Assembly (NCBI GenBank): GCA_964618145.1
Contig: CAZTZR010000003.1
Location: forward strand, 997-64,996
Length of the DNA stretch: 64,000 nucleotides
DNA from: an uncultured Kofleriaceae bacterium
Lineage (GTDB): Bacteria > Myxococcota_A > Polyangia > HGW-17
Reading direction: 5' to 3'
The notes under the pieces were generated by a model that saw only the letters and a list, made by a program, of their open reading frames with translations, did no database searches and was not told the origin of the DNA. Shown here piece after piece: positions 622-6,959 of the stretch. The position numbers were made by a program, and so were the translations under genes. How positions within the stretch are numbered: the first letter of the stretch is position 1; each line of letters opens with the position of its first letter.

Positions 622-2121
622 ATGTCCTGGCTTCCGGTCGCCAAACTTTGGGGAATCATGCTGTCGGTGGTGGTTGTTCTTTGGGGCTGTGGCAGCGGGG
701 AAAAAAAGGCGGTGGGGATTCCCGACGCGCCCCCGTGCCCTGAACGGATGTCCCCGGTGCCGGTGATTGAACCGGTGTTTACCGTGGGAGAGGGAACGCC
801 GTCCTCCTGTGATGAAAATGCACTGCGGGAGGCAATGGCCCTGGCGGGTGCCGGCGGTTCCGGCAGCATCCTGTTTGACTGCGGGCCTGAACCCCACGTC
901 ATCCACCTGACTTCAGCCCTGGAAGTATCCGGCACCCTCCTGCTGGACGGGGAGAACCGGATCACCCTGGATGGGGGGCAAAACAGCCGCATCCTGTCCT
1001 GTGCGCACCACACCCGCCTGACGGTACAGCGCATGGAACTGGCCAACGGCCGCACCGAAGACAGTGGTGCGGCCATCCACCAGCCCTGGTTCGGGGAACT
1101 GGTGGTCATCGATGTCGGATTCACCAACAATGTCTGCACCTCCACCGCACCGGAGATCGGTGGCGGTGGCGTATTCGCCGGAGGTTTGACCAAAGCGGTG
1201 TTTTCCGGTTGCACGTTCACGGGCAACCGTGCGTCCAACGGAGGGGGAATCTTCAATCGGTCCAGTACGCTGACCGTGCTGCACAGCACCTTCGTTGACA
1301 ACGAGACGACCTCATCGGGGGGCGGCGGACAGGTGGGCAACGGTGGAGCCATTTACATCGACGGCATGTGGAACGATCCCCCGGGACGTCTGCTCCTGTG
1401 TGGCAGTGTCTTTCGGGAGAACAAGGGCCGCCAGCACGGCAGCGCCTTGTTCGGGTATTTCTATGCCGGTTCCGCCGCGGATATCCACGACTGCGTGTTC
1501 GAGGACAACCGGTTCCTCGCCGAAGGGTCGGGAACGCTGTATCATCAGGGGGTCCACCTGACGCTCTCCCGAAGCCTTTTTGCCGGAAACACTTCACTGA
1601 AGCATGCGTCGGGGTTGTTTGTGGGTTCCGGTTCCACCGCGGACGTGATCAACTGCACCTTTGCGGACAATCATACACCGGAGGTGGGAGCCGCCATCTT
1701 CAACGGCGCGTCCACCGTACGGGTGGTCAACTCCACCTTTTCCGGCAACAGTGCGGACTATGCGCCTGCGGTGTTTTCCGGCGAGAACGCACGCATGAGT
1801 TACCGCAACTGCATCTTCTCCGGAAACACCACAGAGAACCGGTACAGCGCACTGCATTGCAATGCCGCCGGGGTGGACGAGGGCGGAAACATCCAGTGGC
1901 CGGAAAACCGCAATTCCGGGTCGCCGGATACCCCGTGTGCGGCAGGAACCCTGTTTGCCGATCCACAGTTGACGGTTCTGGGGGATCACGGCGGCTTTTC
2001 CCGTTCGCATGACGTTTCCGCCCAGAGCCCGGCCTTGTTGCTGGGGCGCAACTGCCCGAAGGTGGATCAGCGCGGCGTTTCCCGGGCGGAGCCATGCACT
2101 TCCGGTGCCATTGAAAAATAG
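622..2121 (+). CDS. Right-handed parallel beta-helix repeat lipoprotein (Gly/Asn-rich beta-helix turns, 'NxxGGAI' style repeats)
   Basis: ORF 556..2121. Lipoprotein signal peptide [23 protein letters not shown] (lipobox LWGC) starts at ATG 622. Repeated 'GNxAxxGGAI/GGGIFN/SGN' beta-helix motifs throughout. Confidence 0.75.
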
Positions 2122-2600
2122 ACTGAATCAATCCGGTTCTTCGAAGTCCGCCGGGTTCAGGTGCATCACGAGGACCTCGTGAATCAACTCCAGGGCCCTT
2201 TCCCGCGGAGGAATTCATGAACAAAAGTGCAACCACCAGACGCTGCAGGACCGCCACCAGTTTCCGGATGTCATCGGAATGCAGACCCAGGGTGGGCTCG
2301 TCCAGCAGGAACAGGGTGCGGCCCGTATCCGCCCGGGCCAGTTCCCGGGCCAGTTTGACCCGCTGGGATTCGCCACCGGAAAGAGACGGCGCGGGACGAT
2401 CCAGGGTCAGGTATCCCAATCCCACGGAACCCAGAAGCCGCAACCGGGCCTGGATCTCCCGCAACAGGCCTTCGGCGATGCGCTTTCGCCCTTCATCCAG
2501 ATTCAGGTGGGAGAAGTGCGACAGGCAGGCAAGAACCGTTTGGGCACATACTTCCGGGAGACTTTTCCCTCGTCCTGATGATTGTTGCTGTTGTTAGAAA
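2080..2600. repeat. Degenerate direct-repeat copy of the region 5950-12735: collinear mosaic of six short segments joined at microhomologies
   Basis: By eye, 2124-2184 matches 5998-6058 (2 mismatches). 2185-2212 matches 6376-6412, 2207-2240 matches 6986-7022, 2240-2395 matches 8603-8760, 2395-2575 matches 9775-9960 (about 95% identity), and 2575-2600 matches 12708-12735. Order and orientation are conserved. Confidence 0.8.
2241..2578 (-). pseudogene. uvrA: Chimeric uvrA fragment fusing two ABC signature/Walker B regions from different parts of uvrA
   Basis: ORF 1727..2464 (-) begins [70 protein letters not shown]. This fuses the UvrA mid-region and C-terminal motifs that are found intact in 8424..11234. 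No N-terminus and no Walker A. Confidence 0.8.
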
Positions 2601-2744
2601 ACCTGACCCGGGGCCACCATACAGCAAATCCGGAAAAACCGATATGATTTGCAAAAATATCAGTTGCAAAGGAAGGCGGGACAACCGCATCATGCCGGGA
2701 ACCCGGTCGCCTGGCGTCTGGATGCCTTGCACCGGCGGAGGTTC

Positions 2745-5568: not shown

Positions 5569-5856
5569 ATGCCGCGTGAATACCTGAAGAATGTGACCAC
5601 CGTGAAAGTCGATGCCGAAAAATGCACCGGGTGCGGGCTCTGCGTGGACCTCTGTCCCCATCGTGTGCTCCGGATGGAAGAAGGCAAGGTGGTGGTCCAC
5701 CACCCCGACAAATGCATCGAATGCGGCGCCTGTAGCAAAAACTGTCCCACCGAAGCCGTTTCGGTCCAGGCCGGGGTCGGTTGTGCCTACGCGATGATTG
5801 CAGGGAAACTCCGGGGCAAGGCGCCATGCTGCGGTCCCGGTTCCGGCTGCTGCTGA
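5569..5856 (+). CDS. hgcB: Mercury methylation ferredoxin HgcB (2x[4Fe-4S], C-terminal Cys-Cys)
   Basis: CTGCGLCVDLCP and CIECGACSKNCP motifs. C-terminal tail PCCGPGSGCC. Start is 1 nt after the hgcA stop, with GGAG 7 nt upstream. Confidence 0.9.
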   Translation: MPREYLKNVTTVKVDAEKCTGCGLCVDLCPHRVLRMEEGKVVVHHPDKCIECGACSKNCPTEAVSVQAGVGCAYAMIAGKLRGKAPCCGPGSGCC

Positions 5857-6002
5857 TATGGTATCATTCCCGGCACACTGTTGGGGTCCATGGGTGTGCC
5901 TCATGAAACTCATTACCGATACGTCCAGGCTTTCGCTTTCCAGGAGGGTGTCCTGGGGAGCCATGCACCACCGGTGCCATCGAGAGACGGTAAATCCCTG
6001 AA

Positions 6003-6959
6003 TCAATCCAGTTCTTCGAAGTCCGCCGGGTTCAGGTGCATCACGAGAACCTCGTGAAGTTTTTGTTCCATCAGTCTGGAACCCTGGCCGCTCAGGTGCA
6101 CCTCATCCTGGAAATTGTCCAGGTCCGCATGAAGGTCGCCATGGGCTTCGCTGTTGAAGTCCGCCGTGACGGACCCGTCGGGCAGCACGGCAGTCACCTG
6201 TCTGGCGAACCGCTCGAAGTCGGCGCGATGGGCCTGATACACGGGCCGGGGAACGGGATGCAGCACCAGGATGATCCGTGCGCCAGCGGCATCCAGGTCC
6301 CGCAGCAATTCCAGGTACTCCTGCCACGCGAAAAAGTCGGTGGCGAGTTCCCTGCGGTAGTAGTCGGGATCTCCGGCTTTTTCGTGAATCAACTCCAGGG
6401 CCCTTTCCCTCGGAGGCTCCTCGTATTCGTGGTAGCCGAACTCGTTGTAGGGTTCGTGCCCCGACAAATCCTGCCAGGCCGCGATGATATAGCGTTTGAG
6501 GATGTCCACGGAACCCAGGGCACCGAACACGGCGCTCTCCGAGAGATACGTGGTCTTCATGCCGCTTTCCCGGAGAATGTACGGGTACATGCTGATGATC
6601 ACCAGTTTCGGGTCCCGGACCTCCAGATAGTTGTCCACGAGCCATTTGACTTCCGATATGGTGCCGGCCAGGATCGACAGGTTGTAGATCTGAAGCGGCA
6701 AAAAGCGGGAAGTGTCGATGTTGAACGAGGTGGAACCGCCGATGAGCAACCCGTTGAAGTTCTCCGGCACGTAGCGGCGCGAGAGCAGGTTTTTCTCCAG
6801 GCGCTCGTTGAAGTACATGTTGATGCGTCGGTGTGTTGCCCCGCGAAAGTAGCCGTAGGAGTCGATCCAGACATTGATGCCGATGATCAAGGCCGCCAGC
6901 AGCAACGTCAGAATCACGGAGGAGAGGAAAAAGCGTCGGGGGGTCATGGGGTTGTCCAT
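6003..6959 (-). CDS. Membrane-anchored periplasmic partner of MBOAT acyltransferase (DltD/AlgJ/AlgX-like)
   Basis: N-terminal TM anchor FFLSSVILTLLLAALIIGINVWI, then a roughly 290-aa soluble domain. Its start overlaps the upstream MBOAT stop at 6959. Confidence 0.6.
   Translation of the reverse strand: MDNPMTPRRFFLSSVILTLLLAALIIGINVWIDSYGYFRGATHRRINMYFNERLEKNLLSRRYVPENFNGLLIGGSTSFNIDTSRFLPLQIYNLSILAGTISEVKWLVDNYLEVRDPKLVIISMYPYILRESGMKTTYLSESAVFGALGSVDILKRYIIAAWQDLSGHEPYNEFGYHEYEEPPRERALELIHEKAGDPDYYRRELATDFFAWQEYLELLRDLDAAGARIILVLHPVPRPVYQAHRADFERFARQVTAVLPDGSVTADFNSEAHGDLHADLDNFQDEVHLSGQGSRLMEQKLHEVLVMHLNPADFEELD

Follow-up and report, generated by a model that had tools for sequence, protein, structure and literature searches.

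The mercury methylation genes hgcA and hgcB have a patchy distribution, which has been ascribed to horizontal transfer on phylogeny alone (PMC7438021). In the large survey of McDaniel et al. (2020), no hgcA was located on a viral contig or close to an insertion sequence or transposase; all known hgcA sequences were chromosomal, the mechanisms of transfer were left open, and the pinpointing of individual transfer events was called for (PMC7438021). The present analysis concerns an hgcAB pair in a 64-kb stretch of DNA (contig CAZTZR010000003.1 of assembly GCA_964618145.1), referred to at its full length as the window. Like the published neighbourhoods, it has hgcA and hgcB adjacent and on a chromosome, without an insertion sequence, transposase, phage or plasmid nearby. 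Unlike them, it has no helix-turn-helix (HTH) regulator upstream of hgcA, as is found in 112 genomes of that survey, and the pair lies inside a recombination scar, a setting found there for no hgcAB (PMC7438021). It is suggested, tentatively and as rather less than probable, that this may be the first physical scar of hgcAB movement, left when a circularised piece of chromosome, exchanged between closely related Myxococcota-like bacteria, was inserted by a single homologous crossover and then locked in by erosion of the duplicated arms. If this is true, hgcAB moved without a phage, plasmid or transposon. The scar offers a concrete and testable case for hgcAB transfer, a candidate event but an ambiguous one.

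Rearrangement scars of this general kind are already known, and the present one adds a further example. As in the Campbell-type insertion of suicide or integrative plasmids and some integrated episomes, a homology region is directly repeated around a single-copy insert, the internal order and the junction between the two parts of this region (X and Y below) are kept in both copies, and such a structure is unstable until the repeats are removed. Unlike those cases, the locus has no vector backbone, origin, integrase or att site, its arms were at least 8 kb of ordinary chromosome including the housekeeping gene uvrA and are now eroded to 477 and ~109 bp, and a circular intermediate can here only be inferred. 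The locus shares with tandem segmental duplication and degeneration the presence of two direct copies, complementary loss and deletions between short direct repeats; it departs from this pattern in that a radical-SAM gene (rSAM), hgcA and hgcB are single-copy, which requires an extra complete loss, and in that the divergence between copies is uneven, at 3% versus 18%. A patchily distributed gene cluster bracketed by direct repeats is also typical of site-specific genomic islands and integrative elements. However, no integrase, no att site or tRNA target at the boundaries and no deviant composition was found when these were tested, and the repeats are the remains of kilobase gene arms rather than att sites of 15-60 bp, so an element of this type was rejected.

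Two eroded direct copies around a single-copy hgcAB cargo

The features of the locus are as follows, a prime denoting an eroded copy and coordinates referring to the window.

604-2121, plus strand: X, intact beta-helix / choice-of-anchor-Q gene, 505 amino acids (Pfam Beta_helix, 4.3e-12; NCBIfam choice_anch_Q; gene call in the ENA contig L001)
2123-2599, minus strand: Y', a 477-bp mosaic of DltD-like, MBOAT, uvrA and VWA pieces
2599/2600: novel joint at which VWA codon ~60 (source 12733) meets the cargo (from alignment)
2745-4091, plus strand: rSAM, radical-SAM gene, 448 amino acids, the first cargo gene (Pfam Radical_SAM)
4092-4550: non-coding spacer between rSAM and hgcA, 459 bp
4551-5567, plus strand: hgcA, mercury methylation corrinoid protein (NCBIfam NF040863, 398.8 bits, cut-off 275)
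5569-5856, plus strand: hgcB, dicluster ferredoxin with C-terminal CC (NCBIfam NF040864, 111.7 bits, cut-off 99)
5889-5997, plus strand: X', eroded copy of X, made up of a 5' piece (5889/5899-5942), 14 unmatched nucleotides (nt) and a 3' piece (5957-5997)
5998-12733, minus strand: Y, the intact part of the second copy, with DltD-like, MBOAT, uvrA and the VWA gene from codon ~60 to its stop
6003-6947, minus strand: DltD-like gene, without a family match in Pfam or NCBIfam
6959-8377, minus strand: MBOAT gene (Pfam, 2.4e-35)
8424-11234, minus strand: uvrA (NCBIfam UvrA equivalog, 1313.6 bits, cut-off 1147)
11335-12903, minus strand: VWA-domain gene (Pfam)

The identity of the HgcAB pair is clear: both proteins reach the curated equivalog cut-offs, the HgcA translation contains the cap-helix motif NVWCAAGK (expected N(V/I)WCA(A/G)GK), and the genes are adjacent, with 1 nt between the hgcA stop and the hgcB start. 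The open reading frame (ORF) of X opens at 556, and the gene calls of L001 also cover the genes of the Y block.

A BLASTN comparison of 1800-2750 with the whole window, combined with a repeat search, defines the pieces of Y' as six matches to the Y block, all on the same strand and in ascending order, which are 88-97% identical with E-values from 2e-95 to 2e-7. A left-hand remnant of roughly 480 bp had been anticipated in the original prediction, and these pieces account for all 477 bp of it. In the following list each match is given with its source, and then with its extent and the start of its source once overlaps are trimmed.

Piece 1: 2123-2183, matching 5998-6058, DltD-like 3' end, 97%; trimmed 2123-2183, source from 5998
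Piece 2: 2177-2211, matching 6382-6416, DltD-like interior, 97%; trimmed 2177-2211, source from 6382
Piece 3: 2197-2239, matching 6982-7024, MBOAT 3' end, 88%; trimmed 2207-2235, source from 6992
Piece 4: 2229-2383, matching 8599-8753, uvrA C-terminal ATPase module, 97%, E 2e-70; trimmed 2233-2367, source from 8603
Piece 5: 2338-2570, matching 9725-9957, uvrA N-terminal ATPase module, 92%, E 2e-95 (95.7% over 2361-2570); trimmed 2361-2570, source from 9748
Piece 6: 2571-2599, matching 12705-12733, VWA N-terminal low-complexity region, 97%; trimmed 2571-2599, source from 12705

X and the DltD-like gene are convergent, with stop codons 6 nt apart at the left junction. Because the match of piece 1 runs leftward into the end of X (2088-2122 against 5957-5997), this tight convergent junction must be present in both copies; the full match of 2088-2183 to 5957-6058, which spans both stop codons, is 86% identical over 102 columns (E 1e-28). 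At the other end of Y', the similarity to the right-hand block stops at 2599, there being no match between 2600-2700 and the sequence from 12734 onward. When the window was compared with itself in an all-against-all BLAST, the Y'/Y matches were the strongest repeats and nothing comparable was found elsewhere. Chance similarity is ruled out by the E-values and the collinearity. Two ORFs called inside Y', one at 2279-2578 on the plus strand (a 99-amino-acid gene in L001) and one at 1727-2464 on the minus strand (245 amino acids, fusing UvrA, MBOAT and DltD-like fragments), result from the mosaic and do not merit annotation as genes.

On the right of the cargo, the 40-bp remnant of the X 3' end that had been proposed is indeed present at 5957-5997, with 89% identity between 5957-5983 and 2088-2114. 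A further piece of X lies upstream of it: 5899-5942 matches 600-643 at the start of X, including its first 13 codons, with 77% identity over 44 nt (E 1e-5). This is the best non-self match within the window of the 146-nt stretch between hgcB and the DltD-like gene, and is collinear with the 3' piece. If an indel of 1 nt is allowed, the match, as read from the alignment, reaches the ribosome-binding site (5889 against 591). Since X' holds both the start and the 3' end of X, it is a whole copy of X from whose interior ~1.44 kb has been lost.

On the ancestral map, the duplicated unit (U) covers no less than 591-12733, a length of at least 8.2 kb that takes in the X ribosome-binding site at one end and reaches VWA codon ~60 at the other. 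The present map consists of a first copy, U1, in which X is intact and Y is eroded to 477 bp, a 3.3-kb single-copy cargo, and a second copy, U2, in which X is eroded to ~109 bp and Y is intact. The cargo comprises rSAM, the 459-bp spacer, hgcA and hgcB, and a second copy of 2600-5898 is absent from the window. Every gene retains a single working copy, that of X on the left and those of DltD-like, MBOAT, uvrA and VWA on the right. The layout X-Y'-[rSAM-hgcA-hgcB]-X'-Y given in the original prediction is borne out by BLASTN, the repeat search and alignment, and the locus is a real rearrangement scar, larger than first described.

The source segments of successive Y' pieces overlap at most of the joints between them. 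This overlap is 7 nt (TCGTGAA) between pieces 1 and 2; 15 nt between pieces 2 and 3, imperfect at 11/15 with an exact GGAGG inside; 11 nt, 9/11 matching, between pieces 3 and 4; and 0-1 nt between pieces 5 and 6 (2570/2571). Between pieces 4 and 5 there is a 46-nt homeologous overlap in the signature/Walker-B region of both UvrA ATPase modules, with the crossover at 2361-2367. Overlaps of this kind are the mark left by serial template switching or by spontaneous deletion between short direct repeats; an assembler does not produce them. Hence the later deletional erosion of the arms, which had also been proposed, is well supported by the microhomology at the junctions, and the locus shows how duplicated stretches of kilobase size, whether from integration or from duplication, are trimmed by deletions at microhomologies until each gene has one working copy. 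The longest perfect identities remaining between the copies, computed from the mismatch list, are 113, 63 and 54 nt. Recombination at these stretches would lose DltD-like and MBOAT and truncate uvrA, so the destruction of these genes on looping-out leaves the cargo effectively locked in.

That these joints were created by assembly, as a chimeric metagenome contig joining strain variants or misplacing reads at repeats, is highly improbable. The source is a metagenome assembly, and repeats of 155-233 nt at 92-97% identity are apt to confuse assemblers. However, the ENA contig L001 is identical to the window (100%), and a Logan contig from a different run (L002) equals 2541-6040 at 100%, covering the junctions at 2570/2571, 2599/2600 and 5957 and breaking inside the repeats at both ends, as real repeats would break an assembly graph. 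A 99-kb NCBI contig encodes the identical rSAM and HgcA, along with a DltD-like protein that falls into the same 90% cluster. Furthermore, assemblers do not produce five microhomology deletion joints in collinear order. The agreement of the ENA, Logan and NCBI assemblies disposes of the chimera that had been named as one of the findings that would overturn the original prediction.

Routes to the present map

The duplicated, collinear and reciprocally eroded arms, the microhomology at their junctions and the single-copy cargo are observed directly. The manner in which they arose can be approached through the divergence between the copies, counted after alignment overhangs at the junctions had been trimmed. 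Y' differs from Y at 15 of 490 positions (3.1%), and X' from X at 13 of 71 (18%; Fisher p = 6e-6). Copies of equal age should not differ sixfold in this way, barring long gene conversion homogenising Y and Y', and such values are hard to obtain from one in situ duplication unless gene conversion was prolonged. They would be natural if the copies are alleles of two lineages and X is a fast-evolving surface protein. Nine of the 15 differences in Y' are synonymous (p = 0.007 against random mutation, on 15 sites; p = 0.11 against both copies being functional), and each of the five uvrA replacements is either conservative or at a position that varies. Judged against solved UvrA sequences, the functional copy carries one derived residue (M469; the solved proteins share L with Y') and the remnant another (L492). 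The 113 remnant codons contain no stops or frameshifts. From the sequence, this looks like divergence built up while both copies were functional, although it is a trend over too few sites to decide.

The explanation leaned towards here, which is close to an even call, is the single-crossover (Campbell-type) import of circular DNA from a near relative. We infer a circular intermediate, a foreign (sister-lineage) origin for one set of arms, and an order of events as follows. A circular, non-replicating DNA would have carried the cargo together with donor copies of X and Y; its probable source was a closely related strain with hgcB immediately upstream of X, from whose chromosome a fragment of at least 11.5 kb would have been circularised through an illegitimate joint, now 2599/2600. 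Recombination of this circle with the resident X-Y region would have generated the order resident X, donor Y, cargo, donor X, resident Y. The long direct repeats would then have been lost in seven or more deletions, mostly between short direct repeats, leaving one working copy per gene and too little homology for the cargo to loop out without the destruction of uvrA, MBOAT and DltD-like. Any donor would have been a near relative, its arms being ~82-97% identical to those of the host.

Import of this kind is supported by the U1-cargo-U2 map, the X/Y junction in both copies, the collinear pieces and the single-copy cargo, and the structure is exactly that predicted by the Campbell-type integration originally proposed. 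The further claim that the locus is direct sequence evidence of horizontal hgcAB acquisition does not hold, because a tandem duplication of cargo, X and Y with loss of one cargo copy predicts the identical map; with one locus alone, internal duplication and import from a sister lineage cannot be told apart, and the scar does not amount to direct proof. In this alternative, which is possible but on the doubtful side, the ancestral order was upstream sequence, cargo, X and Y, and a tandem duplication took in everything from a point just upstream of rSAM as far as VWA codon ~60, with 2599/2600 as its joint, arising either by unequal exchange or in one microhomology-mediated template-switching event resembling microhomology-mediated break-induced replication. 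The outer cargo was then lost completely, Y was lost in the left copy and X in the right, and hgcAB would have been vertically inherited at this locus with nothing acquired. Reciprocal loss of each redundant gene is what duplication and degeneration predicts, the microhomology joints also fit serial template switching, and one more deletion, that of the first cargo copy, costs little when at least seven are already evident. The composition of the cargo is the same as that of its flanks, mobile-element genes are absent, and rSAM has relatives in Myxococcota, which makes at least some of the cargo look native to this phylum. By contrast, the first cargo copy would have to be removed by a clean deletion ending ~13 nt before the start of X, of which no remnant is found; copies of equal age would be expected to show similar neutral divergence; rescue by gene conversion needs a 6.7-kb near-identical direct repeat to persist for long without loop-out of the cargo; and the differences in Y' are biased to synonymous and conservative changes. 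No second copy or remnant of the cargo was detected to the right of VWA (12734-13400) or in the 1.6 kb to the left of X, the best match reaching 25 bits (E 0.05) against up to 23.7 bits in shuffled controls. This absence weakly favours single-crossover import, a clean deletion being possible. Other multi-step routes are unlikely. In one, an X-Y tandem duplication already existed and the cargo entered its joint later; in the other, a linear fragment was taken up through homology-facilitated illegitimate recombination, or through double-strand-break repair, with short stretches of Y and X copied in as filler. Joints with little or no microhomology (0-1 nt at 2570/2571) are as seen in illegitimate joining, and the pieces that make up X' and Y' are very short, at 29-210 nt. 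Yet leftovers of full-length copies more simply account for six Y' pieces on the same strand, strictly ascending over 6.7 kb, and for X' pieces that follow the order of the gene, and nothing marks a duplication joint as a target for insertion.

A number of results count against single-crossover import. Tandem duplication is intrinsically the commoner event in bacteria. The divergence of X' rests on 71 nt at the gene ends only, and the synonymous fraction in Y' does not significantly reject the in situ expectation (p = 0.08). The composition of 2600-5950 relative to its flanks had been pointed to as informative, and nothing deviant emerged: over 2600-5898, guanine-cytosine content (GC), GC at third codon positions (GC3) and tetranucleotide signature are indistinguishable from the flanks, with a cargo GC3 of 0.71-0.78 against 0.67-0.80 and a tetranucleotide distance of ~1.6 standard deviations, 8 of 111 windows being further out. 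No integrase, recombinase or plasmid backbone was detected by Pfam among all genes from 1 to 16.5 kb, no att site or tRNA is found at the cargo boundaries (the only tRNA of the window is at 62.49 kb), and plasmid records searched for hgcA gave none. The signs of a circular donor, namely a backbone, an origin or the element elsewhere, were not found, nor was a close relative of the cargo anywhere; the sequence without an assignment at the cargo ends amounts to 49-145 nt and ~32 nt. Genome, metagenome and protein collections yielded no close relative able to show the empty site. When the DltD-like protein was scanned against GTDB species genomes and JGI metagenomes, the nearest relatives had 79% and 72% identity and a different gene order, with X, uvrA and hgcAB not within 10 kb. 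Homologues of X are at most 56% identical anywhere, the two contexts inspected being unrelated, while relatives of rSAM (at most 70%) and of HgcA (at most 53%, from many phyla) are non-syntenic.

The event moved or duplicated a block in which hgcAB already adjoined a gene whose closest relatives are in Myxococcota, and did so between near-identical backgrounds. The scar neither dates nor explains the original arrival of hgcAB in the lineage. Even if import is the true explanation, it speaks to exchange between near relatives and not to jumps between phyla.

Relatives of the cargo and of the Y block

The best relatives of the DltD-like and MBOAT proteins (79%) and of rSAM (68%) are in Myxococcota metagenome-assembled genomes, so that the DNA probably comes from a sparsely sampled bacterium of this phylum. 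The closest rSAM relatives, at 68, 65 and 55% identity, are all of 448 amino acids and lie on Myxococcota-type contigs without an adjacent hgcAB. The nearest HgcA relatives (49-53%, several phyla) have an HTH regulator before hgcA and not this rSAM, and in the two nearest the HTH gene abuts hgcA. Because rSAM relatives lack hgcAB beside them and HgcA relatives are preceded by an HTH regulator instead of rSAM, the sequence comparisons indicate that rSAM-hgcAB, the 'island' of the original prediction, is not a conserved cassette.

The spacer at 4092-4550 contains no gene for an ArsR/MarR-type regulator and no detectable remnant of one, and no riboswitch or other Rfam family; a promoter and terminator scan was uninformative. 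The upstream neighbours of rSAM that are conserved in two of its relatives' contigs (L009 and L012), encoding PdxA and proteins of 159 and 517 amino acids, have no counterpart in the window. The 517-amino-acid protein was considered as a homologue of X and rejected by comparison.

A ~30-nt motif (AACGGGnCAnCCTTTTGCGGGCG..CCTT) in the spacer, at 4237-4265 on the plus strand, recurs at 62669-62711 on the minus strand, with 79% identity over 43 nt (E 1e-5). This second site is ~100 nt downstream of the only tRNA in the window (tRNA-Met, 62490-62566), and the motif could be a regulatory or terminator-like element.

In the window, as in distant relatives (L017-L019), MBOAT and the DltD-like gene are immediate neighbours. 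In the closest Myxococcota metagenome-assembled genomes (L003, 2038-10933, and L004, 39-4970), genes for a MopE-repeat/lamin-tail protein and an OmpA-family protein are found upstream of the DltD-like gene. In L003, where MBOAT is on the same contig, these two genes separate it from DltD-like.

Further features of the window

At its N-terminus the VWA protein has a low-complexity tract rich in Asn and Tyr; the coding DNA (12705-12820) consists of degenerate tandem repeats of 9-12 nt, and local GC there falls to 0.41. The right limit of the duplicated unit, 12733, is inside this tract. The flank beyond the VWA gene includes the following gene.

13348-14637, plus strand: Na+/H+ exchanger gene (Pfam)

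A small ORF on the minus strand (12993-13286) lies between the VWA and Na+/H+ exchanger genes. It weakly resembles a 123-amino-acid gene located two genes downstream of the rSAM orthologue in L012 (30% over 81 amino acids, E 6e-5), and a second weak copy is present at 47680-47895. Hence it probably belongs to a small multi-copy family, and its tie to the rSAM neighbourhood may be coincidental.

Other repeats in the window include a direct repeat of 183 nt at 27013-27195 and 27427-27609, with 76% identity and 414 nt apart, and a family of ~60-80 nt at 26720-26807, 44424-44504 and 59989-60040, with 77-83% identity, of which the copy at ~26.7 kb is inverted.

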